NCBI GenBank assembly: GCA_964512835.1 | Contig: CAZELA010000001.1 | Coordinates: forward strand, 233,372-297,371 | Direction of reading: 5' to 3' | Length of the DNA stretch: 64,000 nucleotides | Source of the DNA: an uncultured Candidatus Saccharibacteria bacterium | GTDB taxonomy: Bacteria > Patescibacteriota > Minisyncoccia > Phycocordibacterales > UBA2100 | Part shown: positions 2,094 to 52,044 of the stretch, piece after piece | How positions within the stretch are numbered: position 1 is the stretch's first letter | Layout: each line of letters starts with the position of its first letter | Translations under genes and position numbers: made by a program | The notes under the pieces: generated by a model | Told to the model about the DNA's origin: nothing | Database searches by the model: none | What the model saw: the letters and a program-made list of their open reading frames with translations, nothing else

Positions 2094-2094
2094 C

Positions 2095-2127: not shown

Positions 2128-2139
2128 GTGGTACATTGC

Positions 2140-2964: not shown

Positions 2965-2986
2965 TATAGTTTGAACCACTCTTCAT

Positions 2987-22062: not shown

Positions 22063-22063
22063 T

Positions 22064-22390
22064 ATGGACCTGTCTACGGTCGTTGCACTGTTTAATATTG
22101 TCGTCGGGGGGATGCTGGTGATATCGATCCTCATGATGTTCGGCGGCCTGGGGCTCTGGTACGTGCGCCTCGGTACGTGGCCGACATATCGCGACGAAGC
22201 GATTGACTACATGCGGTGGGGAGTATCAGTGCTGTTCGTTCTTGTCGTGCTGCTTGGCATTGCGCAATACGTTCAGACTCACATGGCTCTCTCTATGCTT
22301 GCGCTCGGGGCAGTGGTCGCGGCCATTGTTGTGTACTTTGTCGGTACACAGCTTATGGCCGGAGGCGGAGACGAGGAAGAACACCACTAG
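22064..22390 (+). CDS. small polytopic membrane protein, paralog C (no signal peptide, acidic tail)
   Basis: Starts 2 nt after B's stop; 3 TM; C-terminus GGGDEEEHH. Confidence 0.45.
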   Translation: MDLSTVVALFNIVVGGMLVISILMMFGGLGLWYVRLGTWPTYRDEAIDYMRWGVSVLFVLVVLLGIAQYVQTHMALSMLALGAVVAAIVVYFVGTQLMAGGGDEEEHH

Positions 22391-22501: not shown

Positions 22502-22873
22502 ATGCGCAGAACGCTTATTCAGATCGGTTCGACAGCAGCGACCCTCGCTTTCGTAGGCCTTCCGTCACTCGTTGCCGCACAGCAGACGGCTGCACAGGGA
22601 CTCTTGGGTACGCTCGCGCTTGCGAACCGCATTCTCAACGGTTTGGTTGGTCTCCTCATTCTCGTCGCTATCCTCGCGTTCTTCTGGGGTTTGATCAAAT
22701 ACCTCTTCTCGGGAGGCGGTGAAGATAAGTCAGAAGGTCTCAAGCTCATGTTCTACGGTGTCATCGCGATCTTCGTGATGGTATCAATCTGGGGCATCAT
22801 CCGACTCCTTCAGAACACATTCGGTGTTACGCAGAACACGTCGATCACTCCTGACGGTATCCGCTCCTTCTAA
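22502..22873 (+). CDS. TrbC/VirB2-like small membrane protein, paralog D
   Basis: Signal peptide ...LVAAQQ; two helices; FVMVSIWGIIRLLQNTFG. Confidence 0.5.
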   Translation: MRRTLIQIGSTAATLAFVGLPSLVAAQQTAAQGLLGTLALANRILNGLVGLLILVAILAFFWGLIKYLFSGGGEDKSEGLKLMFYGVIAIFVMVSIWGIIRLLQNTFGVTQNTSITPDGIRSF

Positions 22874-23202: not shown

Positions 23203-23362
23203 GAAACGGGGACTCGATCACGAATAAAATCCACGCCGTCGCGATCAAGGGGGACTCGGCCAAGCGCTCGCTTCGTCGCCGTCGCGACGAAGCTCCGTTC
23301 GGCCCTGCTCGCGCATCCCCGTCTACTGACGGGGCCCCAGCGCTCGCTTTCTCGTCCCCGCC

Positions 23363-23410
23363 TTTGCTCTACCAAATACAAAAGATCGAGGCATGCCTCG
23401 ATCTTTTGTA
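23363..23410. terminator. long perfect palindrome / bidirectional terminator
   Basis: CAAATACAAAAGATCGAGGCATGCCTCGATCTTTTGTATTTG (19-bp stem). Confidence 0.7.
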
Positions 23411-23416
23411 TTTGTG

Positions 23417-23498
23417 TGGGCAAGGGGGGACTCGAACCCCCAATCCTTACGGAACCAGTTCCTAAGACTGGCGCGTATACCAATTCCGCCACTTGCCC
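23417..23498 (-). tRNA. tRNA-Leu (anticodon TAG), type II, CCA not encoded
   Basis: Manual fold: acceptor GGGCAAG/CTTGCCC, anticodon loop CTTAGGA, long variable arm, T-arm GGTTCGAGTCC. Confidence 0.8.
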
Positions 23499-23573
23499 AT
23501 CTGCACGATATTACACCTTTTCGGCTCGACCGAGCTATCGGTAACTCGCGCCGTAACGCACTATTTTCCTTTG

Positions 23574-23594
23574 CCAATTCCGCCACTTGCCCAT
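23574..23594 (-). repeat. exact 21-bp copy of the tRNA-Leu(TAG) 5' end in its upstream leader
   Basis: CCAATTCCGCCACTTGCCCAT also at 23480-23500; preceded on the tRNA strand by a TATAGT -10-like box. Confidence 0.7.
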
Positions 23595-23628
23595 TCGCGG
23601 CACACTATAGCACCAATTGTATCGAATG

Positions 23629-23657
23629 TTGACAATGGTATTTCAACATGCTATTAT
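23629..23657 (+). promoter_or_regulatory. consensus sigma70-type promoter for the DEAD-box helicase gene
   Basis: TTGACA, 17 bp, TATTAT; about 125-nt leader before the ATG at 23789. Confidence 0.6.
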
Positions 23658-23788
23658 CCACACACCAACGTACTCGTATTCTTTTGTCTTGAGCTACCTC
23701 TCGAGACCGCCCCGTAGTCGAATTGTGGGGTCGAGGAAAGCTCGAGGCGCTGGAATTAACGACTAGTGCCGTATATTCGGCTTACTAT

Positions 23789-24997
23789 ATGTACAAACAG
23801 TACTCACGTTCGGGCGGCGGTTCTCGCTCCCGATTCGGCGGACGCTCCGGCGGCCGCGCAAATTATCCGAAAAGTCGCGCACCGCGACAGATGGGTCAAT
23901 ACATTGATCCGGCTCGCTTTGTAAACAAGGCGACAGTCACCGAGGTGCAGGACGTATTCGTGCCGCAGCATAACTTCGCGGACTTTGACGTAGCAGACAG
24001 CCTGAAAAACAACATCATCAAGAAAGGCTACGTAACTCCGACTCCTATTCAGGACCATGCGATCCCGCATGTGCTCCATGGTGAAGATGTGCTCGGTATT
24101 GCTGATACCGGTACCGGCAAGACCGCAGCGTTCCTCATTCCGCTCATCAACAAAGTATTGAATGACCGATCGCAAAAGGTATTGATTATGGTGCCGACCC
24201 GTGAACTCGCGACTCAGATCGAGGACGAGTACTGGGGATTCGCAGACCACATGCGCATCGGCGCGGTGACCGTTGTAGGCGGTGCGAACATCAATAAGCA
24301 GATCCAGACGCTCCGACGACGACCGAACTTTGTAATCGGTACACCGGGACGACTGAAAGATCTCATGAGCCAGGGCGAGCTCGACCTCTCGGACTTCAAC
24401 ACTGTTGTTCTCGACGAGGCAGACCGCATGCTCGACATGGGTTTCATCCAGGACATGCGATTCATTCTTTCGCACATGCCGACGGAGCGGCACACGCTGT
24501 TTTTTACAGCGACGCTCTCGCGCGACATCGAACGAATGGTGCACGACTTCCTCAATAATCCGGTCCAGATCAAGATCAAGACGCGCGATACTGCTGCGTC
24601 AGTGGATCAGGACATCGTGAATGTGCGCGGTCGTGAAAAGATCGACGTGCTGCAGGAATTGCTCGCTCAGCCGGAATTCGAAAAGGTAATAGTCTTCGGA
24701 CGTACCAAACACGGCGTCGAAAAGCTTGCAAAAATGCTCGCAAAGAACGGATTCAAAGCTGAGTCCATTCACGGCAACAAAACGCAGAATAAGCGTGACC
24801 GCGCGCTCACATCGTTCAAAAAGGGACAGGTAAATATCCTCGTTGCGACAGACGTCGCTGCCCGAGGTATCGACGTCTCGGACGTATCGCACGTGATCAA
24901 CTACGATCAGCCGACGACCTACGATGACTATGTACACCGCATCGGCCGAACAGGCCGCGCAGGCAAGGCGGGAAAGGCGCTGACATTTGTCGGCTAA
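23789..24997 (+). CDS. DEAD-box ATP-dependent RNA helicase with N-terminal RGG-rich segment
   Basis: Motifs ADTGTGKT, PTRELA, DEAD (VLDEADRML), SAT, HRIGRTGRAG; N-terminus SRSGGGSRSRFGGRSGGR. Confidence 0.85.
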   Translation: MYKQYSRSGGGSRSRFGGRSGGRANYPKSRAPRQMGQYIDPARFVNKATVTEVQDVFVPQHNFADFDVADSLKNNIIKKGYVTPTPIQDHAIPHVLHGEDVLGIADTGTGKTAAFLIPLINKVLNDRSQKVLIMVPTRELATQIEDEYWGFADHMRIGAVTVVGGANINKQIQTLRRRPNFVIGTPGRLKDLMSQGELDLSDFNTVVLDEADRMLDMGFIQDMRFILSHMPTERHTLFFTATLSRDIERMVHDFLNNPVQIKIKTRDTAASVDQDIVNVRGREKIDVLQELLAQPEFEKVIVFGRTKHGVEKLAKMLAKNGFKAESIHGNKTQNKRDRALTSFKKGQVNILVATDVAARGIDVSDVSHVINYDQPTTYDDYVHRIGRTGRAGKAGKALTFVG

Positions 24998-25006
24998 ACA
25001 GCACGA

Positions 25007-25045
25007 CGTTGGAAAAACGACCCCTCAAGAGGGGTCGTTTTGCAT
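25007..25045. terminator. bidirectional terminator
   Basis: AAAAACGACCCCTCAAGAGGGGTCGTTTTGC. Confidence 0.7.
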
Positions 25046-25117
25046 TGGTATACCTTATGTATCGCTGGTAATCGAAAAAGATACCGAAGCGATCAGGAGG
25101 GTCGTGCAGCGTGACGC

Positions 25118-26392
25118 CTAGGCCGCGCTGTCGGGCGTCTGCGGCATTCCTTTGATGAGTGTAGCCACCTCGTGCCACAGCGATGTCGGGTCCGACATCT
25201 GTTTCTCGGCAAGTGCCCAGTCGAACTGCCCGCGAACATACTTGCGGCTGTCCTGGATGCCTTCTTCGTGCGGTAGGTTCGACATACCGATCTCGTCGCC
25301 GTAGTACATGATGGGCGAGCCGGGGAGTGAGTAGAGGAGTTTGAATGCGCGTCGCATACCCTCGCGGTCTCCGCGAAACACCTGACCGACCCGCGCCGAT
25401 GTAAACGGTGTCTTTTTGAAGTGGAACAATCCATCCGGATCGAGGAAGGCGACGAGTGCCGATCGGATGCCCGGTTCAAGTGTGGCGAGCGAAATCTCGT
25501 CGTGATTGCGTAGGAATATTGCCCAGGAACAATTATCGGGAATATCCGATGTGGCATCTACCATCTCTTGCACGGCGAGCGTCTCGCTCTTTTGGAGTGC
25601 GAGCCACATTTGCTCCATAAGATTGAAGTGGTAGGCCATATGACACTCGTCACCGTCGCCGAAATACTTCTTTGTATCCTCTACACTCAAGTGTGCCTCG
25701 GACAGGAGAATCACGTCCGGGTATTCTTTTTCAAGGGCGGCTCGTAGTCGCTTGAGCACCGCATGCGTCTCGGGCAATCCGCGACAATTGGTGCCGTCGC
25801 GCTTTACCAGGAATGGGGCAGCATCGAGCCGGAATCCGCTCACGCCCATATCTGCCCAGAATTTCATTACTCCAAACATTTCATTGAACACCTCGTCGTT
25901 GTCCCAATTGAGATCCGGTTGCTCGGGATAAAACGTGGCGAAATAGTAGTCGCCCGTTGTCTCGTTTGGCATCCATACGGTATCGCCAAACATGTTTTGA
26001 GCGAGCGGGAACTCGGTTCCCGTTTCCGACCAGAGATAGTAATCGCGTTTGGGATTGGAGCGTGAGGAGCTCGCTTCGATAAACCACGGGTGTTTGTTGC
26101 TCGTGTGATTAAGAACGAGATCGAGGATGATACGTATGCCGCGACCGCGCGCTTCGCGCACGAGCCGTTCCATGTCGTGGATGGTACCGAGGTCTTCGCG
26201 CACATTGCGGTAGTCCGAGATGTCGTATCCGTCATCAATCATCGGCGACGGGTAGTGGGGCAGGATGTGGAGACAGTTGATACCGAGTGCCTCAAAATAC
26301 GGCAGCTGCGCCGTAAGGCCGTTCAAATCTTTGTTGAACTTGTCGACATACAGCTCGTATATTTTTGCTGATTTCCACCAGTATTCGGCCAT
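25118..26392 (-). CDS. GH13 alpha-amylase-family glycoside hydrolase (catalytic domain only)
   Basis: GH13 regions DLVLNHTS, GFRLDAA, EAH...; start taken at MAEYWWK. Confidence 0.7.
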   Translation of the reverse strand: MAEYWWKSAKIYELYVDKFNKDLNGLTAQLPYFEALGINCLHILPHYPSPMIDDGYDISDYRNVREDLGTIHDMERLVREARGRGIRIILDLVLNHTSNKHPWFIEASSSRSNPKRDYYLWSETGTEFPLAQNMFGDTVWMPNETTGDYYFATFYPEQPDLNWDNDEVFNEMFGVMKFWADMGVSGFRLDAAPFLVKRDGTNCRGLPETHAVLKRLRAALEKEYPDVILLSEAHLSVEDTKKYFGDGDECHMAYHFNLMEQMWLALQKSETLAVQEMVDATSDIPDNCSWAIFLRNHDEISLATLEPGIRSALVAFLDPDGLFHFKKTPFTSARVGQVFRGDREGMRRAFKLLYSLPGSPIMYYGDEIGMSNLPHEEGIQDSRKYVRGQFDWALAEKQMSDPTSLWHEVATLIKGMPQTPDSAA

Positions 26393-26435
26393 CGGTCGAT
26401 TATAGGGCACTTCACCGTGGGCGGCGCTTGTCAGT

Positions 26436-27002
26436 GTGGTCTCGCAATGGTACACCTGCCAGCAGTTCAGGGAGGATGAATCGATGAAAATGCTGAGACG
26501 CTGGTTCTCTACATTCGTTGATAGTGCAGTTGTGATCGACGTGGACTACTCCAAGCCCCTCTATATACCAATAGGGGCGAGCGGTTTGAGCCGGCATCGG
26601 CCAGTTGGAACTGGCCGTATGTCGCTGCTGCCGCATAGTTTTGAATTGCGTGAGATGCCGCTGGGCATGACGTACGACGGATATTTCGACGCGCATGGCG
26701 ATGACATGATGTGCGATGCGGCCGTTCTCGACGGCATCGTGGCGTACGTCACGAAGGATGGTTTGGATGGGCGCTCGGTCGAACGGCGAATGTTCAAGTT
26801 GTTCGGCGACTTCCGCGGGCAAGTTTTTTTCCTGGGGACGTCGTTTACGTCGCCGGATAATGGGGTACATGTACCGTATTTGAATGTGCGGACAAACATG
26901 CCGGCCCTCAGGTACGCGTGCCCGTCGCATCATCCGATGAATCACGATTTCGACGTGCGCGTGTGTCACCTTGCACCGGTGCAACCAATCGTCGGCCCGT
27001 AG
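26436..27002 (+). CDS. hypothetical protein (strand assignment uncertain)
   Basis: 188-aa ORF with GC3-rich codons, convergent with cspA onto a shared terminator; a 199-aa antisense ORF also exists. Confidence 0.3.
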   Translation: MVSQWYTCQQFREDESMKMLRRWFSTFVDSAVVIDVDYSKPLYIPIGASGLSRHRPVGTGRMSLLPHSFELREMPLGMTYDGYFDAHGDDMMCDAAVLDGIVAYVTKDGLDGRSVERRMFKLFGDFRGQVFFLGTSFTSPDNGVHVPYLNVRTNMPALRYACPSHHPMNHDFDVRVCHLAPVQPIVGP

Positions 27003-27021
27003 GTCCGTCACTGTTCAATAC

Positions 27022-27055
27022 AAAAGGCCCCGTCTTACGACGGGGCCTTTCATGT
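27022..27055. terminator. bidirectional terminator
   Basis: AAAAGGCCCCGTCTTACGACGGGGCCTTTCATG. Confidence 0.7.
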
Positions 27056-27062
27056 AGATCGC

Positions 27063-27263
27063 TTAGATCTTGCTCACTTTGAGAGCGTTCGGGCCCTTCG
27101 GGCTTTCACCTACTTCAAAGCTTACTTTGTCTCCCTCGCGGAGGTCGTTGAACTGAACGTTCTGAAGTTCGTTCATGTGGAAAAAGAGATCCTTTTCCTG
27201 TCCGTTGACGGAGATAAATCCGAATCCCTTGTCGGTGAGTCGGGCGATGGTTCCTTCTTGCAT
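27063..27263 (-). CDS. cspA: cold-shock protein (CspA family)
   Basis: 66 aa; RNP1-like KGFGFI and FFHMNEL. Confidence 0.9.
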   Translation of the reverse strand: MQEGTIARLTDKGFGFISVNGQEKDLFFHMNELQNVQFNDLREGDKVSFEVGESPKGPNALKVSKI

Positions 27264-27580
27264 GGCAATGAGAATATCTTGAATAGATTCCCGTGAGGGA
27301 AATCAATACAGGACTGGAGTTTAGGTCGATCCCTGCTTCTCTGGATCAGCTCTGGTTGATACGTAAAAGATACCATGTGAAAAATGATGTGTCAATGAAT
27401 CGTGATTTGTTTGAGGCTGATTCCGAGATGTGGTGCCGGCAAGTATCGAGATGCGACATCGACTACGCTCCATGAGTGGTCAGGGATATTTTCCTCGCCG
27501 CCGCTCGGAAAATTCCACGATTCTGCCTTGCCTGTCGCAAAAGCTTTTGCAACATGGCTCCGGCTCGCACAAAGCGAAAA
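27264..27580 (-). promoter_or_regulatory. probable long cspA 5' leader and promoter region (no convincing ORF)
   Basis: About 300 nt without coding signal between the upstream terminator and the cspA ATG; csp genes classically have long structured leaders. Confidence 0.35.
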
Positions 27581-27584
27581 AACC

Positions 27585-27612
27585 TGGCGCAGGCCAGGTT
27601 TGTTTCGTCTTT
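27585..27612 (-). terminator. terminator of the low-GC hypothetical gene
   Basis: AACCTGGCGCAGGCCAGGTT hairpin with T-run on the minus strand. Confidence 0.6.
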
Positions 27613-27643
27613 GTGCGCCCAATGGGACGTTATCGGAACGGAA

Positions 27644-28168
27644 CTATTGGCAGGAGTCACGCAGATCGCCAGTTAGCCATGTTGCCGATTTTTTTGCCTC
27701 ATCAATATTTCTCAGCTGTAAATTATTTGGAACACCTGCTTGATGGCGCTTTTCTTCGAACTGAGTTTCAGTAAATGCCTGCATCGTTTGACCCGAGTGC
27801 GGGTCAATAACCCACCAGTAGGTTATCGATTCATCGGGGATGCAATTTGAACAATCCTCCATGCGTGGGTGCGGTTTCTCCAGCGGGTGTGTCTTCGCAA
27901 GAACATAGTCGTCATCCCACGCAATTTCAAATATGGATTCGGGAATGAACCCCCCAGCATCACCAATATCCGTGCAATTTACATATACAGCATATGCACT
28001 GCTCCTGTTCAGTTTGCAATGTGAATTTAACTGATATTCATAGTCTGCTAAACCGGGTCCAAAACCACATTTAAGAATAGTGCTGTAAAAAGAGAAACAA
28101 ATAAAAATCCACACGATGCTGGCGCCAATCCAAAAATACTTCGGATTCCGAACGATGGCTTTCAACAT
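27644..28168 (-). CDS. hypothetical membrane-anchored protein, low GC
   Basis: 174 aa, N-terminal TM, Cys-containing; about 45% GC versus 55-58% in flanks. Confidence 0.45.
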   Translation of the reverse strand: MLKAIVRNPKYFWIGASIVWIFICFSFYSTILKCGFGPGLADYEYQLNSHCKLNRSSAYAVYVNCTDIGDAGGFIPESIFEIAWDDDYVLAKTHPLEKPHPRMEDCSNCIPDESITYWWVIDPHSGQTMQAFTETQFEEKRHQAGVPNNLQLRNIDEAKKSATWLTGDLRDSCQ

Positions 28169-28196
28169 AGGAAAACTATGTCACGAAACTGAAAAC

Positions 28197-28390
28197 TTGT
28201 CTGTGCGCCCACTAGGATCCTCCCAAGCGCTCGTATTTTGCCGTCGCAAAATACTCCGCTCGGGCCTGGTTTTGCTATCCCATCTGCTGATGGGCCCCAC
28301 GCAAAACCTTTCGAATCCTGACGCTCGCTTCGCTAGCTGTGGGCGCACTTGTAAACAGAAAACGGCCCTAAGGCCGTTTTCTGATTCAAG
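28197..28390 (-). repeat. tRNA-Lys trailer element
   Basis: Terminator AAAACGGCCCTAAGGCCGTTTTC (28359-28382), inverted acceptor copy (28338-28349), hairpin GTATTTTGC-GACG-GCAAAATAC (28233-28254), direct copy GTGCGCCCAC.AGGAT (28203-28217). Confidence 0.6.
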
Positions 28391-28463
28391 TGCGCCCACC
28401 AGGATTCGAACCTGGGACCGTTCGCTTAAGAGGCGACTGCTCTACCAGCTGAGCTATGAGCGC
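28391..28463 (-). tRNA. tRNA-Lys (anticodon CTT), CCA not encoded
   Basis: Manual fold: acceptor GCGCTCA/TGGGCGC, anticodon loop CTCTTAA, T-arm CCAGGTTCGAATCCTGG. Confidence 0.8.
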
Positions 28464-28560
28464 AACGCAGGCACTATACCGTATTTATCGGAAATTTGAA
28501 GGGTGTACCGACGGAGAATTCCGTACAATGCTCGGTATGATCGGTCCTCGGTCCATACGC

Positions 28561-29478
28561 ATGAAGGTTTTGGTTGGGCTGACCGCGCTGGCTCTTTCGG
28601 GTGTTGTGATCGGCTCCCAATACGCATTTGATCGCGCTGCCGAACAGCGAGAGCTTGCCCGATTCCGAAAACTCACGACGACTGCAGCACAAAAGGAGAT
28701 CAGGATAATGACCGAGACAGAGGGGCCCATTGCGGCATGGAAATTCACGAAGCGCGTGTACTTCGACGACCATTCGATCGTTTACGGCAATGCTGACGGA
28801 CATGCTATAGCGCACACGGTAGGTGAGGGGATGTACGATCGGTATGGTCTCGCACAAGCATTGCGTGAATGTGATCACTCGTTCAGCGAAGGGTGTATGC
28901 ACGGCGTCGTGGCACGGATGATCGAGCAGGCGGGATCCGGCTCACCGGCTACGATGGGTTCAATCTGCGCTGCGCAAATTGATCCGAATAGTTGCGCTCA
29001 CGGCTCGGGCCACGGGATCGATGAGGCCGCTGCGAGGGACCTGGGTGTGTCGCTCGATTGGTGTCGTCGGTTTCCCGATGCGATCGCCCCTGACTGTGTC
29101 GAAGGGGTCCTGATGGATAATTCGTGGGATTGGGATCGTGTCAGCATGGAGCGTGATCCGTGGTCGATCTGTGCTCCGCTTGCAAAAGAATTCGACGTAG
29201 CCTGTGCGTCTGCTATCGGAAACTATTTCTCGGAGATGCGGAATGGTTCAGAGGAGCACCTTCGGTACGAGCCGAGCTACATATCTAATGTGTGTGACAT
29301 GGCTCCAACAAAGGATATGAAGGACCGGTGTTTTTTGCGCCTCTCTCAAAGTATCGTACGTAGGGCAAAGGCCGACCCTGCGCAGATGTTTTCGTTGTGC
29401 AGTGAGCTTTCGGCGAACAGGCGCAATACGTGCATCGTGTCGGCGAACGAATTTGTTGATGGTCAGAAGGTGTTTTGA
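28561..29478 (+). CDS. hypothetical secreted cysteine-rich protein
   Basis: Signal/TM MKVLVGLTALALSGVVIG; at least 16 Cys in the mature region; start chosen downstream of the tRNA-Lys overlap. Confidence 0.45.
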   Translation: MKVLVGLTALALSGVVIGSQYAFDRAAEQRELARFRKLTTTAAQKEIRIMTETEGPIAAWKFTKRVYFDDHSIVYGNADGHAIAHTVGEGMYDRYGLAQALRECDHSFSEGCMHGVVARMIEQAGSGSPATMGSICAAQIDPNSCAHGSGHGIDEAAARDLGVSLDWCRRFPDAIAPDCVEGVLMDNSWDWDRVSMERDPWSICAPLAKEFDVACASAIGNYFSEMRNGSEEHLRYEPSYISNVCDMAPTKDMKDRCFLRLSQSIVRRAKADPAQMFSLCSELSANRRNTCIVSANEFVDGQKVF

Positions 29479-29521
29479 GTGTATCCGCGTATCAGGTCTG
29501 TCTACATCCGACTGTCCAAAA

Positions 29522-29550
29522 GAAATTCGCGCGACCCGATTTCGGGTCGC
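29522..29550. terminator. bidirectional terminator
   Basis: CGCGCGACCCGATTTCGGGTCGCGCG. Confidence 0.6.
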
Positions 29551-29579
29551 GCGACGGGCAAGAAGCCACTGTCACGGCA

Positions 29580-29894
29580 TCAGTCGAGCACGCTGCGCAG
29601 GTCACGGATGCGGAGGTCGTACATCTCCATCAGGCACTTGTTGCTCATGCACTGGTCGCGCATCGAGAGCCACTCGCGCTGATTGTCCAACAGCTCCCGG
29701 GCGCCGCGCCGCGCCATATTGTTGCGCAGGCGGTAGTAGTACGCCGACATCGTCGCATCCCGATCGAGCAGCGTCGAATCCGAGCAGATGCGGCGTTCCA
29801 CAGGCCGCTGATCGACCCTGCAGTCGATATTGGCGTGGGCGGCGGTCGTACCGAGCACGAGCATGGCGATGCTGGCCAGCAATACCTTTTGCAT
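29580..29894 (-). CDS. secreted DUF1311 (LprI-like) domain protein
   Basis: Signal peptide MQKVLLASIAMLVLGTTAAHA; CRVD...C....MSAYYYRL...LLDNQREWL..RDQC pattern. Confidence 0.5.
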   Translation of the reverse strand: MQKVLLASIAMLVLGTTAAHANIDCRVDQRPVERRICSDSTLLDRDATMSAYYYRLRNNMARRGARELLDNQREWLSMRDQCMSNKCLMEMYDLRIRDLRSVLD

Positions 29895-30011
29895 AAAGAA
29901 CTCCCTCAATGTTCGCTGTCCCTGTGACAGCGGCGCAGATGCTAACACGCACTTTCGCAAAAAGAAACCGCGCGGCCCGAAAGGGTCGCGCGGCAATGAA
30001 CGGAATGTGTC

Positions 30012-30980
30012 TCAGGCAATGATCAGGTCGGAAAGCGACTTGTCGTGGTGGAGTCGTTGGATCGCGGTGGAAAGCAGCGGTGCGACCGATAGCACAGTCA
30101 GTTTGGTGTTGCCGATCATGCGCGAGCCCGGTTCCAGATTACAGACCGAGTCTGTGGTGATGATTTCCTTGAACGGACCGTTCGCAATCTTTTCCATCGC
30201 GTTGCCGGAGAAAAGCCCGTGGGTTGCAAAGGCGTACAGATCTTTGGCGCCCAAGGACTTCGCTAATTTGCCGTTACTGTCCATGGTGCCGAACGTGTCC
30301 ATGATGTCGTCGACAAAGATGATGTCATAGCCGTCGATATCGCCGACAGCGATCGTCTCATCTTCGGCGATCTCGTTGGCGCCGGATCGCAGCTTCAGAA
30401 AAACGGCGAGCCTGCGTCGTGCAAGATGCTGTGCATATTTTCGCATCCGTGAAACGCCGCCGGCGTCCGGCGACGCCACGCTAAAGTCTTTGCCGGCGAG
30501 CAGCTCCCTGATGTACGGCACGGCGGTCCACGATCCGTAGAGGTGGTCGGTCGTCATGTTCGGCTTGAAGTGCACCACCGTCGGTTCGGAGTGAACATCG
30601 AGCAGGAGTGCGTGATCTGCACCGCAGATCTTGATCTCCTGAATCATATGCCAGGCGCTCACCGGCGTGCGTGATGCCGACTTTCGATCTTGACGGTTAT
30701 AGCCGAGATAGGGAATGACGAGCGTGATCCTTCCTGCCGACGAGTCCCGTGCTGCATCTGCAAGCAGCGTGAGTTCGTCTTTGTTCGAGCTTGGCGGACA
30801 GGTCGGGTTGATGATGAACACGTCCTTGCCGCGCACGTTCTCGAGCAGCTGCACATCGAGCTCGCCGTCCTTGAACGGTTTGAGCTTTCGATTTGAGAGC
30901 GGGATGCTCAGGTTGTTACAGATGGTCGTGGCGAGTCGTTCCGCGGTCGTTCCTGAAAATACACAGATGTCATGAAGCAT
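30012..30980 (-). CDS. prs: ribose-phosphate pyrophosphokinase
   Basis: PRPP-synthetase architecture and PRPP-binding loop DIDGYDIIFVDDIMDTFGT. Confidence 0.85.
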   Translation of the reverse strand: MLHDICVFSGTTAERLATTICNNLSIPLSNRKLKPFKDGELDVQLLENVRGKDVFIINPTCPPSSNKDELTLLADAARDSSAGRITLVIPYLGYNRQDRKSASRTPVSAWHMIQEIKICGADHALLLDVHSEPTVVHFKPNMTTDHLYGSWTAVPYIRELLAGKDFSVASPDAGGVSRMRKYAQHLARRRLAVFLKLRSGANEIAEDETIAVGDIDGYDIIFVDDIMDTFGTMDSNGKLAKSLGAKDLYAFATHGLFSGNAMEKIANGPFKEIITTDSVCNLEPGSRMIGNTKLTVLSVAPLLSTAIQRLHHDKSLSDLIIA

Positions 30981-31140
30981 TCGATAGTCCTCCCGTTTAC
31001 GTTGCCTGTATTGCCGCTAAAAGGCGGCCTGCCATGAGACTACCAACGACCCCTACGCAGTCAACGATACGGGAGCGATTTGTACTATTACGAATACAGA
31101 TCGGTCTCAGGTCAAACAAATAAGAAGCTATACTTTAGCA

Positions 31141-32004
31141 ATGCTCCCGACTACAGGGCTCGTATTCGCGCTTCTGACCGCCGTCTCTGCCTCGGTCTAT
31201 GCGCTTACTGCTCGTTATGTAATACGGGGTGATTCCAACCCGCTCGCGTTTTCAATCTTGTTTACCGTGTGCTCCGCGATCATCTCCTGCGGTCTCTTTT
31301 TTGTGGTGCCGCCGGACTTTTCTTCAGCATCCTGGTCGTATGTGCCGCTTTTAATCTGTGCGGGTATTTTGTACGGCTTGTACGACGCTACACAGTTCTC
31401 GGCTCGCAAACACCTTGAGGCATCAAGTTTTTCTACAATTCTTCAGACTGCGCCTGTAATTGCGTTTATCCTCTCCGTCCTTATTTTGAAGGAGGGGATT
31501 ACCGCCTTGAAACTTGCCGCGGTCGCTCTCATCATCACGGGCAATATCGTTGCGATATACAAATCCCACGGTCGCATAACGCGAACAGGTCTCGCGTTCG
31601 GCCTTACTGTCGCGGCGGTCTCGGGTGTAGCGTACGTCGTCGATAAAGTAACGTTCCCGTACATCCCGTTTCTGCTGTACTCCATCACGGTATATGCTAT
31701 TCCCGCTATAATCGTGTCTTCAATCTATGCGGCAAAAGGTGGCACGGTTGCCTCGGTGCGCGCAGAGTGGCGACAGTTCTCATGGAGGATTCCCGTGATT
31801 TCGCTGCTCGGAGTTACGACATATTACTTTTTGTATCGTGCTTTTCAGGTTGCGGACGCTTCGGTGGTCGTGCCGATTACATCATCATCAACGATACTCA
31901 CGGTCCTTGGTGGCATTTTTCTGCTCGGCGAAAAGGGAAACATGCTGAGGAAAATCATTGGCGCAGTGTTTGTTTTGCTTGGCGTATTGCTGCTCCGGCT
32001 CTAA
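31141..32004 (+). CDS. EamA/DMT family transporter
   Basis: 10 predicted TM helices in two 5-TM halves. Confidence 0.65.
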   Translation: MLPTTGLVFALLTAVSASVYALTARYVIRGDSNPLAFSILFTVCSAIISCGLFFVVPPDFSSASWSYVPLLICAGILYGLYDATQFSARKHLEASSFSTILQTAPVIAFILSVLILKEGITALKLAAVALIITGNIVAIYKSHGRITRTGLAFGLTVAAVSGVAYVVDKVTFPYIPFLLYSITVYAIPAIIVSSIYAAKGGTVASVRAEWRQFSWRIPVISLLGVTTYYFLYRAFQVADASVVVPITSSSTILTVLGGIFLLGEKGNMLRKIIGAVFVLLGVLLLRL

Positions 32005-32009
32005 GTGAC

Positions 32010-32190
32010 GCCACGAGGGGTGTGCACCCGCCCATAACGCCCTTTGTTTAACTGGGCAGACCGTCGCGTGCGACGAGCTGGAATTACGAACACTACAATT
32101 GAGGCCACAGCGGGAGTTGCACCCGCCCATAACGGTTTTGCAGACCGTCGCGTTGCTACTTCGCCATATGGCCAGCGAAAGCTAACGCCG
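32010..32190 (+). repeat. two diverged tandem copies of an about 90-bp unit upstream of tRNA-Leu(TAA)
   Basis: GCACCCGCCCATAACG at 32027 and 32121; GCAGACCGTCGCGT at 32064 and 32143. Confidence 0.6.
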
Positions 32191-32229
32191 TGTACTGTAA
32201 CATAAATCAGCGCTACTATGGTGCGCATT

Positions 32230-32314
32230 GCCGGGGTGATGGAATGGTAGACATAGGGGACTTAAAATCCCCAGGCCGTAAAAGGCCGTGTGGGTTCGAG
32301 TCCCACTCCCGGCA
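32230..32314 (+). tRNA. tRNA-Leu (anticodon TAA), type II, CCA not encoded
   Basis: Manual fold: acceptor GCCGGGG/TCCCGGC, anticodon loop CTTAAAA, long variable arm, T-arm GGTTCGAGTCC. Confidence 0.8.
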
Positions 32315-32345
32315 CAAATGATATAGTCCGAAGAGGAGGTGACAC

Positions 32346-40953: not shown

Positions 40954-41036
40954 GCGTCGATGGCGGAGTGGTCAATCGCACTTGGCTGTAAACCAAGCGA
41001 CTTCGGTCTGCGCAGGTTCGAATCCTGCTCGGCGCA
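40954..41036 (+). tRNA. tRNA-Tyr (anticodon GTA), type II, CCA not encoded
   Basis: Manual fold: acceptor GCGTCGA/TCGGCGC, anticodon loop CTGTAAA, long variable arm, T-arm GCAGGTTCGAATCCTGC. Confidence 0.8.
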
Positions 41037-41230
41037 CAAACGCAAAAAGAACCCAATTGGGTTCTTTTTGCGTTTGTGCAGCACGAGAGCAGAGTGCTGA
41101 GCACTCTGCGGCAGGATTCGAACGCCGGAGCGATGTGAGCCCAGTAGGGCGAACCGCGAGGCGGTGCCCAGACAAACTTTTGCGACGGCAAAAGTTTAGT
41201 CGAGGGAGAATCCTGCTCGGCGCACAAAGT
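41037..41230 (+). repeat. tRNA-Tyr trailer element
   Basis: Terminator (41045-41070), palindrome GCAGAGTGCTGAGCACTCTGC, inverted T-arm-like CAGGATTCGAAC, hairpin AAACTTTTGC-GACG-GCAAAAGTTT (41174-41197), direct copy GAATCCTGCTCGGCGCACAAA (41208-41228 versus 41020-41040). Confidence 0.65.
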
Positions 41231-41276
41231 GCAAAAAGCCCCTAACCGGGGCTTTTTGCGTGGTACGATTTACCGC

Positions 41277-41684
41277 ATGATATTGAGGCAGGTGAAGGTA
41301 CTTGCGACCATTTCTGTCTTCGTGATGATGCTGCTCCCGCTGTACGCGACGGCAGCCGGCATTCCCACGCAGATCGTTCCGTCACAATACAACTGTGATC
41401 AGGAGGGAGGATGCGATTCTATCTGTGCGATCGTGGTACTGGCCCAGAACGTGCTCAATTTTGGCATCTTTATGGCGGTGGTCATTTCCGCTTTTTTGTT
41501 CGCCTACGCAGGCTGGAACATGCTCACATCGGGAGGTAATGCCGAAGTGTATGCAAAGGGGAAACGGGTATTCAGTAATGTTCTGATCGGACTCATCATT
41601 ATCCTGGCGGGCTGGATTGTGATCGATACCCTGATGAAAACCTTTACCGGCACGGGCCTGACTGGAGCGGGGATCTGCGTGTAG
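41277..41684 (+). CDS. TrbC/VirB2-like small membrane protein, paralog F
   Basis: Signal peptide ...LYATAAG; two helices; resembles paralogs A-E at 21.3-23.2 kb. Confidence 0.5.
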   Translation: MILRQVKVLATISVFVMMLLPLYATAAGIPTQIVPSQYNCDQEGGCDSICAIVVLAQNVLNFGIFMAVVISAFLFAYAGWNMLTSGGNAEVYAKGKRVFSNVLIGLIIILAGWIVIDTLMKTFTGTGLTGAGICV

Positions 41685-42579: not shown

Positions 42580-42650
42580 GGGCGATTAGTTTAGTGGTAG
42601 AACAGCGGTCTCCAAAACCGCTAGTGGGGGTTCGATTCCCTCATCGCCCG
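42580..42650 (+). tRNA. tRNA-Trp (anticodon CCA)
   Basis: Manual fold: acceptor GGGCGAT/ATCGCCC, anticodon loop CTCCAAA, T-arm GGGGGTTCGATTCCC. Confidence 0.8.
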
Positions 42651-42652
42651 CA

Positions 42653-42820
42653 ATGATCAAAAAAGACGCGCAAGCGTCTTTTTTGCCAAACATTGCGAGG
42701 CGATGAGGGAATCGAAAGGCGGAGGCGGGGCACCCGCGTACCCGCGGGTCGCCGAGCCAGGGCAGTGACCACTTGCCCGAAGGGCTTAGTGAGTTACGCC
42801 GCTTCCCTCATCGCCCGCAA
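42653..42820 (+). repeat. tRNA-Trp trailer element
   Basis: Terminator AAAAAAGACGCGCAAGCGTCTTTTTT, inverted copy GGCGATGAGGGAATCGAA (42699-42716), direct copy TTCCCTCATCGCCCGCAA (42803-42820); the two copies can pair as a 13-bp stem. Confidence 0.6.
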
Positions 42821-46228: not shown

Positions 46229-46248
46229 TGCGGTAGTATTGTCCGCGG

Positions 46249-46330
46249 GCCGGAATGGCGGAATTGGTATACGCACACGACTCAAAATCGTGCGCCTCAC
46301 GGCTTGTGGGTTCGAGTCCCACTTCCGGCA
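46249..46330 (+). tRNA. tRNA-Leu (anticodon CAA), type II, CCA not encoded
   Basis: Manual fold: acceptor GCCGGAA/TTCCGGC, anticodon loop CTCAAAA, long variable arm, T-arm GGGTTCGAGTCCC. Confidence 0.8.
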
Positions 46331-46507
46331 CACAAAATCAAAAAGCAGGGCATGTCCCTGCTTTTTGATTTTGTGGCACGGAAGTGGGACTCGAAAGCGA
46401 GTCCTGGGCCCCCGCGAGCACGTGGGGATGGACGAGCAGGGCAGAGAAACTTTTTAACGCGACGGCGTTAAAAAGTGTTCTTGGCCGAGTCCCACTTCCG
46501 GCTTTTT
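46331..46507 (+). repeat. tRNA-Leu(CAA) trailer element
   Basis: Terminator palindrome (46335-46371), inverted copy GCACGGAAGTGGGACTCGAA (46376-46395), hairpin ACTTTTTAACGC-GACG-GCGTTAAAAAGT (46449-46476), direct copy GAGTCCCACTTCCGGC plus TTTTT (46487-46507). Confidence 0.65.
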
Positions 46508-46560
46508 ACAATATGCGCATGTGTGGCATAATCGCCCCGGCAACATTCGGGAGGGCACAC

Positions 46561-46923
46561 ATGGCACTACGGGTTCCTGAGCCGGGTGACGAGATCGACG
46601 GACGGGTCATCGACGAAGTCGGTGAGCCGAGGGCGATCAAGGATCGTCACAGTATTGTCGTTGTACGAATGAGCGACAGAAAGTACGAGATCGTGTCGAT
46701 CACGGAGTTCCGGGCCGGTGAACAGAAGATGCGGTACTGGGAAACCGATAATGAACTCATACGCAGGGCGCTCGATACCGCGCTCGACTTTCCGGTCGCC
46801 GCAAGCGGCTCGGTGGGCGAGCTTCGCGTATGGGGCAAGACGGTGTTCGGTAATTTTTCAGCCGTAATCTTCTACGACGCCAAGAAAACCAGCGGTGTAC
46901 AGGATTCGTTCACGTATACCTGA
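46561..46923 (+). CDS. hypothetical protein
   Basis: RBS GGGAGGG; 120 aa. Confidence 0.4.
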   Translation: MALRVPEPGDEIDGRVIDEVGEPRAIKDRHSIVVVRMSDRKYEIVSITEFRAGEQKMRYWETDNELIRRALDTALDFPVAASGSVGELRVWGKTVFGNFSAVIFYDAKKTSGVQDSFTYT

Positions 46924-49547: not shown

Positions 49548-49622
49548 CCATTGATACTACTCTGAGACCCGGTTCGGTCAAATCACATGAACTGAAAAGC
49601 GGCGCTCGGAGCGCAGCTTTCC

Positions 49623-49733
49623 TTACTTCTTTTTCTTCGCCGTCTTCTTGTCGGATGATGCCCCCTCCAGCTTATGCGGGTTGTGCATGGGACATGTTTT
49701 TTGACTACAGCGCTCCGGAATCGTTTTTGGTCA
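49623..49733 (-). pseudogene. displaced duplicate of the topA 3'-terminal coding segment
   Basis: Minus-strand translation between stops: PKTIPERCSQKTCPMHNPHKLEGASSDKKTAKKKK versus the topA C-terminus ...TKTIPERCSQKTCPMHNPHKLEGVAKKKK; 29-bp identical core CCCTCCAGCTTATGCGGGTTGTGCATGGG. Confidence 0.7.
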
Positions 49734-49829
49734 CACGTTCGTGTCGTCCCGTCGGACGCCACGACGTGCGACCCCGGCTCAGGATCGCACGCTGCTGCGT
49801 GCGATATCCTTCCGCCTCACAAAAACGAA

Positions 49830-49851
49830 ACACGAGGCGCAGGCCTCGTGT
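49830..49851 (-). terminator. topA terminator hairpin abutting the stop codon
   Basis: ACACGAGGCCTGCGCCTCGTGT then TTTCGTTTTTG on the minus strand. Confidence 0.6.
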
Positions 49852-52044
49852 TTACTTCTTCTTTTTGGCGACACCCTCCAGCTTATGCGGGTTGTGCATG
49901 GGGCATGTCTTTTGGCTGCATCGTTCCGGGATCGTCTTTGTGCCTTCCATCATGAGCGAGTCACATAGCTTGCAGCGAGCTCCCGTGGGTCGGGCTTTGA
50001 TTGCATTCTTACACTTAGGGTAGTTGGAGCACGCGTAGAATAAACCGAATCGTCCGCGTCGTTCCACCATCTCTCCGTCGCTGCAGATATTGCACTTCAC
50101 GCCGGTCTTTGCCTTCGCTTCCTGTTCCGGGTCTTGCTTCACGAATTTGCACTTAGGGAAGTTCGAGCAGGCGATGAACGGTCCGAATCGGCCTTCGCGC
50201 AGGATCAGTTTGCCGCCCTTCGTTTCGCCGCAATCGGGACAGACTTCGCCGATTTCCTTGGGTGGCGGGATCTCACTGCCGTCCTCGCGTCGCGCACCAA
50301 GACACTCGGGGAATTTCTTGCACGACATAAACCGGCCCGCTTTGGAGAGTTTGTATTCCATCGGACCCTTACAGATCGGACAGGGGAATTCCTCGGGGGC
50401 ATCACCCATGCCGGTGATCTTTGCGATCTTCTCCTTGCCTTTGACCGCTTTCTTGAACGGTGTGTAGAAATCTTTGAGAGTTTTCTCGTATTCTCGAGTG
50501 CCGTCAGAGATCTCATCGAGTTCGTTCTCCATCTCCGCGGTGAACGTGTCCGAAATATACTCACCGAAATTATTCTCAATGAACGTGGACACAACGTCGC
50601 CGGTTGCCGTCGGGATCATGGTGCGACCCTGCTTTTCCACATAGCCGCGCGTCTCGAGTGTGCGGATGATCGACGCATAGGTCGACGGTCGACCGATGCC
50701 GCGACTTTCGAGCTCCTTCACAAGACCTGCCTCTGAATAGCGTCCCGGCGGCTGCGTTTCCTTGCCTTCGGTGTGCGCTTCTACGAGATCGAGCGGATCG
50801 TGCGCTGCAACCTTCGGCAGCTCCACGTCTTCGCCGCGGGCATCCGGATCTGCTGCGAGCCAGCCGTCGAATGTAACGCGGGAGCCGTTGGCGGAAAAAT
50901 CGGGGATGGTTGCACCGCTGACGTTTGCGATGATCTTCGTTCGAAGGGTCTTCGCGTCGGCCATTTGACTCGAGAGTGCTCGGGCACGGATGAGTGTATA
51001 GAGCTTCTTCTGCTCTTCGTTGTTGCCGCATGTTGCTTTGTGCGGATTGGTCGGACGTACAGCTTCGTGTGCCTCCTGCGCATTCTTGCTTTTTGATTTG
51101 TATTCACGTGCCTCTACATACGCTGCGCCGAATTCGCTTGTAGCAACTGCAACGAGCGCCGCCTGCGCTTCCTTGGCGAGGTTCGGACTATCGGTTCGCA
51201 TATAGGTGATGTGACCGGCTTCGTAGAGTTTCTGCGCGATACCCATCGTGCGGGACGGAGAGAACCCGAGCCGGGTCGACGCGGCCTGTTGCAGTGTGGA
51301 TGTTGTGAACGGTGCACGCGGCGAGCGTTTTGCTTCGGACTCATCAACGGAAATGACTTTCCAATCTTTTGTGGTCGCCGCCTTGTAGATGCGCTCGGCC
51401 TCTGCCTCGGTCTTCGGCTCCTCGACGCAGGTAACCGTGAATTGCTCTTTTTTCTTTGTTTTGACATCGGCGCTCACCACCCAAAACTTCTCGGGGACGA
51501 ATGCACGGATCTCGCGCTCGCGCTCCATAATGATGCGGAGTGCCGGCGATTGCACGCGGCCGGCCGACAAGCCATACCGCACCTTTTTCCATATGAGGCC
51601 GGAGAGGTCGTAGCCGAAGAGGCGGTCGAGGACGCGACGGGCTTCCTGGGCGGATACGAGTTGCTCATCGATCTTGCGGGGGTGGGCAATCGCTTCCTGT
51701 ACGGCATTCTCCGTAATCTCGTGAAATACGATGCGTTTCGGCTTTTTGAGTCCGATCGTAACGGCCAAATGGTGCGCGATCGCTTCGCCCTCGCGGTCTG
51801 GGTCTGTTGCAAGAATAACCTCAGTCGAGCGACCGGCAATGTCCTTCAGTTCATCGATGATTTTCTGTTTTTCTTTCACGATCTGATAGCGCGGCACAAA
51901 ACCGCCCTCGATATCGACGGCGTCTTTATTGCTTTTCGGCAGATCGCGTATGTGGCCCACCGATGCACGGACCGTGTATCCGTGACCCAGATACTTTTCG
52001 ATCGTTTTTGCTTTGGCGGGGGATTCAACGATGACTAATTTCAT
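49852..52044 (-). CDS. topA: DNA topoisomerase I
   Basis: Toprim plus topo IA core, C-terminal C4 zinc ribbons, Lys-rich tail; 730 aa. Confidence 0.95.
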   Translation of the reverse strand: MKLVIVESPAKAKTIEKYLGHGYTVRASVGHIRDLPKSNKDAVDIEGGFVPRYQIVKEKQKIIDELKDIAGRSTEVILATDPDREGEAIAHHLAVTIGLKKPKRIVFHEITENAVQEAIAHPRKIDEQLVSAQEARRVLDRLFGYDLSGLIWKKVRYGLSAGRVQSPALRIIMEREREIRAFVPEKFWVVSADVKTKKKEQFTVTCVEEPKTEAEAERIYKAATTKDWKVISVDESEAKRSPRAPFTTSTLQQAASTRLGFSPSRTMGIAQKLYEAGHITYMRTDSPNLAKEAQAALVAVATSEFGAAYVEAREYKSKSKNAQEAHEAVRPTNPHKATCGNNEEQKKLYTLIRARALSSQMADAKTLRTKIIANVSGATIPDFSANGSRVTFDGWLAADPDARGEDVELPKVAAHDPLDLVEAHTEGKETQPPGRYSEAGLVKELESRGIGRPSTYASIIRTLETRGYVEKQGRTMIPTATGDVVSTFIENNFGEYISDTFTAEMENELDEISDGTREYEKTLKDFYTPFKKAVKGKEKIAKITGMGDAPEEFPCPICKGPMEYKLSKAGRFMSCKKFPECLGARREDGSEIPPPKEIGEVCPDCGETKGGKLILREGRFGPFIACSNFPKCKFVKQDPEQEAKAKTGVKCNICSDGEMVERRGRFGLFYACSNYPKCKNAIKARPTGARCKLCDSLMMEGTKTIPERCSQKTCPMHNPHKLEGVAKKKK

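Follow-up and report, generated by a model that had tools for sequence, protein, structure and literature searches.

A structured cassette matched to the 3′ ends of tRNA genes and topA in Patescibacteria: a candidate mobile element

The element behind tRNA-Leu(CAA)

We analyzed a 64,000-nt stretch from an uncultured Candidatus Saccharibacteria bacterium (contig CAZELA010000001.1, positions 233,372 to 297,371), hereafter the window, to whose full length all positions refer, and compared it with other loci that are identified by L-numbers (L002, L010 and so on). Directly behind the tRNA-Leu(CAA) gene of the window lies an element of ~170 bp without an open reading frame (ORF), which serves as the exemplar of a family of structured cassettes found at the 3′ ends of tRNA genes and of topA. 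An earlier note on this DNA had described four features in the tRNA trailer, namely a palindrome, an inverted copy of the tRNA end, a hairpin with a GACG loop and a direct copy of the tRNA end, and all four are present. We label the parts of the cassette D1 (the gene 3′ end), S (spacer), t′ (inverted copy), core and D2 (direct copy).

46249–46331, plus strand: tRNA-Leu(CAA), host gene of the exemplar, no encoded CCA (ARAGORN; Rfam tRNA, 59.7 bits)
46313–46331, plus strand: D1, the duplicated part of the tRNA, from T-loop C56 to the discriminator and one further nucleotide (repeat search)
46332–46375, plus strand: spacer S, a perfect palindrome at the centre of the palindrome with 40-nt arms
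46376–46395, plus strand: t′, the complement of T54 to the discriminator and two further nucleotides, 5′ strand of helix P1 (repeat search)
46396–46485, plus strand: conserved core, a three-way junction (minimum-free-energy (MFE) fold; covariance-model match 46384–46495, 102 bits; covariation)
46397–46404/46430–46437, plus strand: core helix P2, with tandem G·A pairs and an apical hairpin; the core part J1/2 is GAAAG
46440–46484, plus strand: core helix P4, containing the hairpin 46449–46476 (loop GACG)
46486–46502, plus strand: D2, direct copy of the tRNA 3′ end and 3′ strand of P1, followed by T5 (46503–46507)
46505–46532, plus strand: promoter-like site TTTACA-16-CATAAT with TG, directly 3′ of D2 (consensus scan)

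The tRNA indeed lacks an encoded CCA, and the palindrome behind it proved longer than the 14-bp stem first proposed. Its arms measure 40 nt (46311–46350 and 46356–46395, 93% complementary in a repeat search), so that a single palindrome runs without a break from the last 20 nt of the tRNA through the spacer to the inverted copy. To the eye, its inner part resembles a terminator, with GCAGGG-CATGT-CCCTGC followed by TTTTT at 46345–46366 (stem 46345–46350/46356–46361, T5 46362–46366), and a consensus terminator scan made no call at this place because the A/T tracts lengthen the stem. The remaining parts are as the note had them: t′, at 46376–46395, is an inverted copy of the last 20 nt of the tRNA (GCACGGAAGTGGGACTCGAA), the core hairpin (46449–46460/46465–46476) has 12 bp with 100% complementarity around its GACG loop, and D2 is identical to D1 (46313–46329) at 17/17 positions before it runs into TTTTT. 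The inverted and direct copies pair over 15 nt at 100% and enclose the hairpin. By simple arithmetic, a 17-nt exact direct repeat is expected by chance at ~4e-6 and a 15-nt inverted repeat at ~6e-5 in 361 nt.

The RNA of the exemplar element folds with a z score of −9.1 relative to dinucleotide shuffles. Its helix P1 mimics the acceptor/T-stem stack of a tRNA, and the mimic is complete in this copy. In the MFE structure of the read-through RNA the strands are swapped, the tRNA 3′ end (D1) pairing with t′ and the tRNA 5′ acceptor strand with D2. The promoter-like site at 46505–46532 corresponds to the native flank that adjoins the tRNA where the element is absent, as judged by comparison with L010, L013 and L016.

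A family with a conserved fold and host-matched repeats

The recurrence of this architecture at three other tRNAs and at topA, which the earlier note had pointed out, is correct and understated. A covariance model (CM) built from 18 copies identifies seven copies in the window, located at five of its seven tRNAs (four besides tRNA-Leu(CAA)), at topA and, in degenerate form, at one further place. Comparing the trailers of all seven tRNAs yields a common order behind Leu-TAG, Lys-CTT, Tyr-GTA, Trp-CCA and Leu-CAA: tRNA, hairpin, inverted copy of its own 3′ end, similar interior and direct copy of its own 3′ end. The general order reads gene…D1 (plus some trailer), S, an optional partial acceptor complement and extra hairpin Px, t′, core, D2 and native flank, with S often a palindrome or terminator; our confidence in the family and in this architecture is high. 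The other copies of the window are listed below.

23241–23372, minus strand: element behind tRNA-Leu(TAG) (tRNA 23416–23498), with t′ and D2 partly decayed (CM, 95 bits)
28203–28348, minus strand: element behind tRNA-Lys(CTT) (tRNA 28390–28463), with an extra hairpin between the acceptor and T-stem complements (CM, 88 bits)
27472–27628, minus strand: degenerate second element after the DUF3997 ORF (27644–28168), comprising a tRNA-Lys 3′-end remnant (27613–27628), a palindromic spacer, a short t′ and a core (27472–27570) (CM)
41076–41225, plus strand: element behind tRNA-Tyr(GTA) (tRNA 40954–41037), with D2 at 41208–41225 followed by a second, homologous terminator (CM, 73 bits)
42695–42818, plus strand: element behind tRNA-Trp(CCA) (tRNA 42580–42651) (CM, 62 bits)
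49621–49851, minus strand: element behind topA (ORF 49852–52044), comprising the Px hairpin (49830–49851, loop CCTGC), t′ (49815–49830), core (49720–49829) and D2 (49621–49730) (CM)
49855–49942, minus strand: D1 of the topA copy, the functional topA 3′ end that is duplicated downstream

All five tRNA-linked copies of the window fold as the same three-way junction (z −4.2 to −9.1), in which P1 is formed by t′ and D2, P2 comprises a tandem G·A internal loop and an apical hairpin, and P4 contains the hairpin with the GCGACGGC motif. RNAalifold detects compensatory changes at 19/22 pairs of the seed alignment. In the 45-hit alignment (42 distinct rows), 91.8% of the cells are paired, as against 62.8% in column shuffles and 36–48% when the pairing partners are slid, and 22/22 pairs change on both sides across the distinct rows. 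G·U pairs outnumber A·C pairs by 39 to 21 and recur in P4 (GGTCGC/GTGACC), which places the structure on the tRNA-sense strand. The junctions ...TCGAAAG and GTGACC|CGA are conserved in 45 and 117 copies of the two sets described below, and inspection of the sequences distinguishes three core subtypes.

In the tRNA-linked copies, P1 has the sequence of the T-stem of the host tRNA and sometimes that of the acceptor stem also. Among the metagenome copies described below, a partial complement of the acceptor 3′ strand often appears upstream of t′; an acceptor complement is detectable in only ~20% of copies. Px lies exactly between the acceptor complement and the T-stem complement in 99/146 distinct copies, 26 of these 99 having CTGC as its loop. 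One variant has TGAGAA in place of the T-loop complement TTCGAA, which would form tandem G·A pairs with the CGAA of D2. We rejected two other derivations of t′, namely that it remains from a degenerate inverted copy of the whole tRNA, since on inspection the similarity to the reverse-complemented tRNA ends at T54, and that it stems from the tRNA's own 5′ strand, since the Lys t′ has GCGCCCA (the complement of the 3′ strand) and not GCGCTCA, and the Leu t′ contains the T-loop complement ACTCGAA. Apparent cases of independent compensation between t′ and D2 turned out to be alignment shifts.

We surveyed two sets of sequences. The related set (1.3 Mb) comprises the window, which its ParB relatives assign to Candidatus Kaiserbacteria/Paceibacterota of the candidate phyla radiation (CPR), and 80 genome loci from relatives in these groups, which were picked through parB, blind to the element; the model finds 45 copies in it, and 23/175 tRNA genes (13%) of these parB-chosen loci carry one. 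The metagenome set was assembled by a pattern scan of contigs that gave at least 120 loci, of which the first 100 were searched with the model and contain 117 copies. Among the 116 of these that were analysed, 78 lie at most 130 nt downstream of a same-strand tRNA, with 34 anticodon types represented, and 11 others lie so near a contig end that their position could not be judged. In 45/79 tRNA-adjacent copies, the match to the upstream tRNA sets in at T-loop C56, precisely 10 nt short of the model's end, and among well-preserved copies most have a D2 that repeats the adjacent tRNA from this position on. D1 equals D2 over 18/18 nt in 40/106 distinct copies. Agreement of the repeats with the neighbouring gene thus characterizes the family as a whole and is not special to the Leu-CAA locus. 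The duplication spans 17–20 nt at tRNAs and ~90–100 nt at topA, in cassettes of ~130–200 bp, and D2 includes the discriminator, CCA where the gene encodes it and often some trailer too. The element always lies on the tRNA-sense strand, often without an intervening terminator, and in one tRNA cluster (L265) each of four tRNAs is directly followed by an element.

A scan of IMG/VR with a 14-mer gave 120 loci, and the 80 that were scanned with the model contain one true element. It is a tandem pair with a tRNA-like D on a contig classed as viral (L091:2880–3200, IMGVR_UViG_3300033463_005745), with no tRNA in the 3.3 kb analysed; the contig could be a phage or a misclassified CPR contig. We rejected a viral origin of the family since this pair, which has no informative context, is the only case among the 80 IMG/VR loci.

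Insertion, displaced gene ends and their interpretation

The pairing of tRNA-Leu(CAA) with parB is a conserved neighbourhood, which allows occupied and empty sites to be compared as the earlier note had proposed. The insert is missing from the same tRNA-Leu(CAA)–parB site in L010, L012, L014 and L017, where the tRNA is directly followed by the parB promoter, and it is present in the window and in L002, L004, L006, L009, L011, L013 and L016. In L009, L013 and L016, occupied sites where tRNA and parB are codirectional, D2 is followed by the native parB promoter. Orientation relative to parB varies as well: the tRNA-Leu(CAA) gene and its element in the window, L006 and L011 are opposite to those of L002 and L004. 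Since the immediate flanks differ (window 46249–46502, compared with L002:6070–6322 and L004:9660–9912), a simple inversion across flanking repeats does not account for the switch. In the window, a 120-aa ORF (46561–46923) without a Pfam match separates the parB-type promoter from parB; a similar ORF occurs in L002 and is missing in most relatives, where parB directly follows the promoter.

Cores turn over at a given site. Close relatives carry different core subtypes behind the same tRNA (Leu-CAA in the window and in L006/L003; Tyr in the window and in L002), and at Leu-CAA the D1, spacer and t′ remain nearly identical despite the difference in core. Conversely, cores that are 89–93% identical stand behind different tRNA types with an entirely different P1, as at Ser-GCT and Ala-GGC (92.9%). 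Tandem arrays occur in L051 (three copies, period 189), L018, L041 and L253. Gene-carrying versions, in which genes lie between D1 and the core with D2, are found in L238 (an IGPS-like ORF flanked on both sides by identical copies of the element), L257 (a 271-aa ORF), L014 (an APH-like kinase) and L298, and at the Lys locus of the window the DUF3997 ORF lies between two elements. The island of L298 extends over 5.3 kb between tRNA-Tyr and its displaced 3′ end and contains, beside a serine recombinase, a protein with Schlafen/AlbA_2 and HATPase_c_4 domains (2094–3557), possibly a defence- or regulator-type gene. At tRNA sites the differences in D2 break its pairing with the tRNA 5′ strand, as expected for a displaced copy.

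The element occupies the same place behind topA in five genomes (the window, L010, L017, L018 and L024), with a decayed copy in L019. Here D covers the final ~30 codons and recurs as D2 with a stop of its own, the 10–12 nt of t′ are complementary to the first nucleotides of D (at 12/12 positions for D1 of L024), and a hairpin that resembles a terminator corresponds to Px. Read-through from the core into D2 is impossible because GTGACC gives an in-frame TGA. D1 and D2 both encode the conserved peptide KTIPERCS.K.C..HNPHK and, over 19 shared codons in the five genomes, differ by 42 synonymous and 7 non-synonymous codon changes (8:0 in the window, 14:0 in L024, 10:2 in L017, 9:3 in L018 and 1:2 in L010). 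Judged from these codon counts, neutral decay of a local duplicate could not have yielded such a pattern, and the two ends appear to resemble functional alleles that have diverged. Most simply, the element would bring its own topA end, expressed while the element is integrated, and the native end would be displaced; on this account the extent of D2 decay, absent in the window and in L024 and strong in L019, would indicate how old the insertion is. We rejected a diversity-generating retroelement as the source of the differences between D1 and D2, which are of all kinds, fall at third positions and are not adenine-specific, and no reverse transcriptase is encoded in the neighbouring ORFs.

With the architecture, the T55|C56 junction, the fold, the insertion polymorphism, the arrays, the cargo versions and the replacement-allele signature established, the best explanation is a cassette family specific to Patescibacteria (CPR), located at tRNA 3′ ends and occasionally at topA. 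We consider it probable, with considerable reserve, that the element is a small non-autonomous mobile cassette that replaces the 3′ end of its target and is guided by a base-paired helix. [quoted passage not shown]

We infer that the mobile part would be the unit D–S–t′–core, which would enter the target by an exchange at the 5′ boundary of D, in tRNAs at T55|C56; the T-loop is one classical sublocation for integration in tRNA genes. The incoming unit would supply a replacement 3′ end, which would leave the host gene intact, and the original end would be displaced to become D2 and then decay. In this process t′ may act as an internal guide whose pairing with D sets the position of the exchange, and the folded junction, as RNA or as single-stranded DNA of the tRNA-sense strand, would be the conserved cis-acting module that a putative trans-acting enzyme recognizes. 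If no terminator stands between them, transcription of the tRNA should continue through the element, which then forms part of the 3′ trailer, and tRNA-processing enzymes may trim the resulting RNA. The element probably exists as RNA, if only as a by-product, because many copies lie in trailers or between clustered tRNAs without a terminator, because P1 with Px has the geometry of the top half of a tRNA and because the strand-swapped fold is the thermodynamic optimum of the read-through transcript.

Several points weigh against a mobile cassette of this kind. No recombinase, reverse transcriptase or transposase was found in or next to the mini elements (Pfam, 10 neighbouring ORFs), and no free or circular form was seen. 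The model gives no account of how one family came by a t′ and a D suited to each of 34 tRNA types. The module is present in only one recombinase island, that of L298, and the serine-recombinase island there looks nested. The covariation was counted on an alignment fitted by the model, which somewhat inflates its figures and still leaves a large margin. t′ pairs about equally with D1 and with D2, with no independent compensation that would show selection on P1. Expression of D2 once the intervening segment has been removed could be another source of the synonymous-only divergence at topA, and a nearest-neighbour comparison over 57 nt did not tell which topA copy is native.

A candidate for the enzyme was sought in a family of large serine recombinases (LSRs) tightly linked to tRNA 3′ ends in CPR loci, the gene overlapping the tRNA end in seven of them. 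In the four LSR loci that were checked (L322:8141–9892, L325:9750–11536, L298:4068–5823 and L070:8264–9949; domains Resolvase, Recombinase and Zn_ribbon), the gene is flanked by inverted repeats of 143–209 nt that are 95–100% complementary (100% in three loci, 95% in L070), with the last 4–6 nt of the tRNA in the outer arm. The LSR genes are convergent with the tRNA (Tyr, Lys-TTT or Glu) and overlap its 3′ end, and the unit resembles a recombinase cassette that inverts itself while docked on the end of a tRNA. We rejected the LSR as the mobilizing enzyme and retain it only as a lead, as five further LSR loci are without core and D2 and that of L298 looks nested.

Part of the evidence would also suit a host-beneficial tRNA-like non-coding RNA residing in the tRNA 3′ trailer, in which P1, with the optional acceptor complement and Px, would mimic the cognate acceptor/T-stem stack. 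Such an RNA would be excised and finished by RNase P, RNase Z and the CCA-adding enzyme and serve as a processing signal, decoy or tRNA companion, its repeats having arisen by local duplication. The constant tRNA-sense orientation and frequent lack of a terminator (and hence the expected co-transcription), the inclusion in D2 of the discriminator and of any gene-encoded CCA, the exact placement of Px at the acceptor/T-stem junction in 99/146 copies, the tandem G·A motifs and G·U excess, the strong covariation and the L265 cluster all agree with it. We nevertheless regard this explanation as possible and on the whole unlikely, since the element is patchy among close relatives and its core subtypes turn over at one site, the acceptor complement can be detected in only ~20% of copies, P1 at topA consists of coding sequence and mimics no tRNA, and a synonymous-only divergence at topA is not expected from local duplication. 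It is compatible with a mobile cassette, as a mobile element may use such an RNA.

A more far-reaching version of the mobile cassette, which we consider rather unlikely, is that the three-way junction with its target-derived P1 is the active part of a new programmable mobile element. In a guide route, t′ could pair with the first 10–20 nt of the target segment on behalf of a putative trans-acting recombinase or nuclease; in a catalytic route, a catalytic RNA could exchange the strand 3′ of the junction. The logic of such an element would be insertion at any tRNA T-loop together with a replacement end and, at the RNA level, an optional intron that mimics its exon.

The guide-like pairing of t′ with the first 10–20 nt of D also underlies an intron-like explanation, in which D1, spacer, t′ and core would together be cut out of the RNA, by self-catalysis or by an enzyme, and the upstream gene part would be joined to D2. 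t′ would guide on the start of the exon, and the unspliced form would be functional since D1 mimics the 3′ exon. The signature of purifying selection on the topA D2, with its intact frame and own stop, and the strand-swapped MFE structure, with the tRNA 5′ acceptor strand paired to D2, speak for this idea, which is improbable all the same. Many tRNA copies, and the copy at topA of L019, have a decayed or truncated D2, which thus is not generally a functional exon, and we found no Rfam ribozyme or intron match and recognized no catalytic core. Hammerhead, hairpin and other ribozymes and group I introns were rejected, as Rfam was negative and, on inspection, the junction strands (GAAAG, G/GG, none) misfit the hammerhead core.

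The earlier note had also proposed an alternative-structure, processing or termination module. Its competing pairings are real: D1:t′ and t′:D2 are mutually exclusive, and a terminator-like hairpin lies between. As a cis-regulatory device (attenuation or termination control) for the tRNA or the downstream gene, we consider the element very improbable. A host role sits poorly with the patchy presence of the element, which is missing from the same site in close relatives, with the topA copies, with unrelated downstream genes (parB, pilin-like ORFs, DUF3997 and relA) and with the many copies that have no terminator, and Rfam gave no T-box or riboswitch match; a T-box or attenuator was rejected on the T-box result and the unrelated downstream genes.

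We regard as equally improbable a functionless by-product of template switching, with fold-back copying at a terminator hairpin, re-annealing at the near-palindromic T-loop TTCGAA and spread of the core only by ectopic gene conversion, as it could generate t′ and D2 at tRNAs and fits the continuous D1–spacer–t′ palindrome, the junctions within the T-loop, the second homologous terminator that sometimes follows D2, the similar cores at different tRNAs and the core-less partial tRNA duplications (the Cys trailer of the window and L038), but explains neither a conserved, covarying 90-nt core across many lineages nor the synonymous-only divergence at topA, where the junctions are without TTCGAA.

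The two core-less duplications just mentioned are as follows. Behind tRNA-Cys of the window (32101–32173, minus strand), a decayed partial duplicate of the 3′ two-thirds of that tRNA follows after ~28 nt without a core (32000–32100), and L038 has a similar partial duplicate of tRNA-Leu(CAA).

Other observations concern the surroundings of the window copies. The Leu-TAG, Lys-CTT, Cys-GCA and Leu-TAA tRNAs form a compact cluster of ~600 nt in L028:189–765 and L035:37–635. In the window the same four extend over 9 kb (23416–32315), with gene blocks inserted after the element-bearing tRNAs (alpha-amylase, DUF3997 and pilin-like ORFs) and with tRNA-Cys inverted. Three small T4SS_pilin-like ORFs (21938–22390, 22502–22873 and 41229–41684) adjoin two element-bearing tRNA loci, only that at 22502–22873 exceeding the Pfam cut-off. 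In the closest relative, a masked run of N directly follows tRNA-Trp (L002:3723–3820), at the position that the element takes in the window.

Comparison with known systems

In the literature, which we covered incompletely, we found no description of this cassette family. A scan of the window at the Rfam gathering threshold returned its seven tRNAs and nothing else, and E-value scans of 46240–46560 and of seven element-bearing loci gave tRNA and sub-threshold noise only. As no Rfam family and no paper that we found describes the cassette, we rate the family as outside the known kinds, with its mechanism still hypothetical. If our interpretation is true, a sizeable share of the tRNA genes of some CPR lineages (5/7 in the window, 13% in the related loci), whose genomes are among the most streamlined known, carries an overlooked structured cassette, and a gene-free element of 150 bp could enter essential genes harmlessly by carrying a replacement end. 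A large covariation-supported RNA (or single-stranded DNA) family absent from Rfam would be added, and its D2 copies and tRNA-like helices can mislead programs that find tRNAs and islands.

The closest likeness is to the tyrosine-integrase islands of tRNA and tmRNA genes (Islander, PMC4383910), which likewise split the target, restore its 3′ end and leave the displaced fragment at the far end, with an identity block that starts in the T-loop, empty sites in relatives and tandem copies. The cassettes display the restored end and the displaced fragment (17/17 in the exemplar, 18/18 in 40/106 copies, empty sites). They differ from these islands in measuring 130–200 bp without an integrase or other gene, in having no recognizable two-armed duplex core site beside D2, in containing an inverted target copy and a covarying three-way junction, and in that one cassette family serves at least 34 tRNA types and topA. 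No internal integrase was found, the only recombinase in any island being the L298 serine recombinase, which is probably nested.

The attC sites of integrons and the attP(+) hairpin of CTX-φ, which is used by XerCD, resemble the cassettes in that structure is more conserved than sequence, in their cassette-like arrays with some co-oriented ORFs, and in inverted copies ~90 nt apart (92 nt from t′ to D2 in the cassette) that fold into a duplex mimicking the target. Integration of a folded hairpin in the manner of CTX-φ or attC would leave behind just such a succession (D, spacer, t′, ~90 nt, D), although this is a resemblance only. The stem of the cassette is sequence of the target gene and changes with each target, the 45 and 117 copies contain no R″/R′ boxes (RYYYAAC/GTTRRRY), and there is no dif site. 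No IntI gene was found in the neighbourhood ORFs examined, and no specific search for Xer genes was made. We rejected an integrative mobile element exploiting Xer (IMEX) of the CTX-φ type, as the targets are tRNA T-loops and topA, not dif, and the likeness of the folded site is geometric only.

Plant mitochondrial t-elements (PMC1920247) and mascRNA share with the cassettes an acceptor/T-stem-stack helix that ends in the discriminator, occur in the transcript next to a tRNA and could, like them, be cut by RNase P and RNase Z. In the cassettes, however, an extended helix and a 90-nt junction take the place of the T-loop, most copies contain the T-stem part only, the helix always copies the neighbouring tRNA, and the topA copies are not tRNA-like. 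Miniature inverted-repeat transposable elements (MITEs), repetitive extragenic palindromes and bacterial interspersed mosaic elements (REP/BIME) and Correia elements are also small, non-coding, multi-copy and flanked by pairable inverted sequences. The paired ends of the cassettes are those of the local target and not conserved, their duplications vary from 17 to 100 nt, and they insert only at the 3′ ends of genes. With ends that derive from the target, P1 arms that differ at every locus in place of conserved terminal inverted repeats, and no target-site duplication of fixed length, the cassette is not a MITE.

The bridge RNA of IS110 (PMC11208160) and TIGR-Tas (PMC12045711) were rejected as identities for the cassette, since size and architecture differ and no associated protein, neither recombinase nor Tas, is encoded next to it; moreover, its two target-matching segments pair with each other. 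The likeness to these systems is conceptual only: both strands of the target are matched in one structured RNA, and tandem G·A motifs and occurrence in CPR bacteria are common to them. The helix of inverted and direct target copies suggests a choice of target by base pairing, the property behind the usefulness of CRISPR, OMEGA and bridge-RNA systems.

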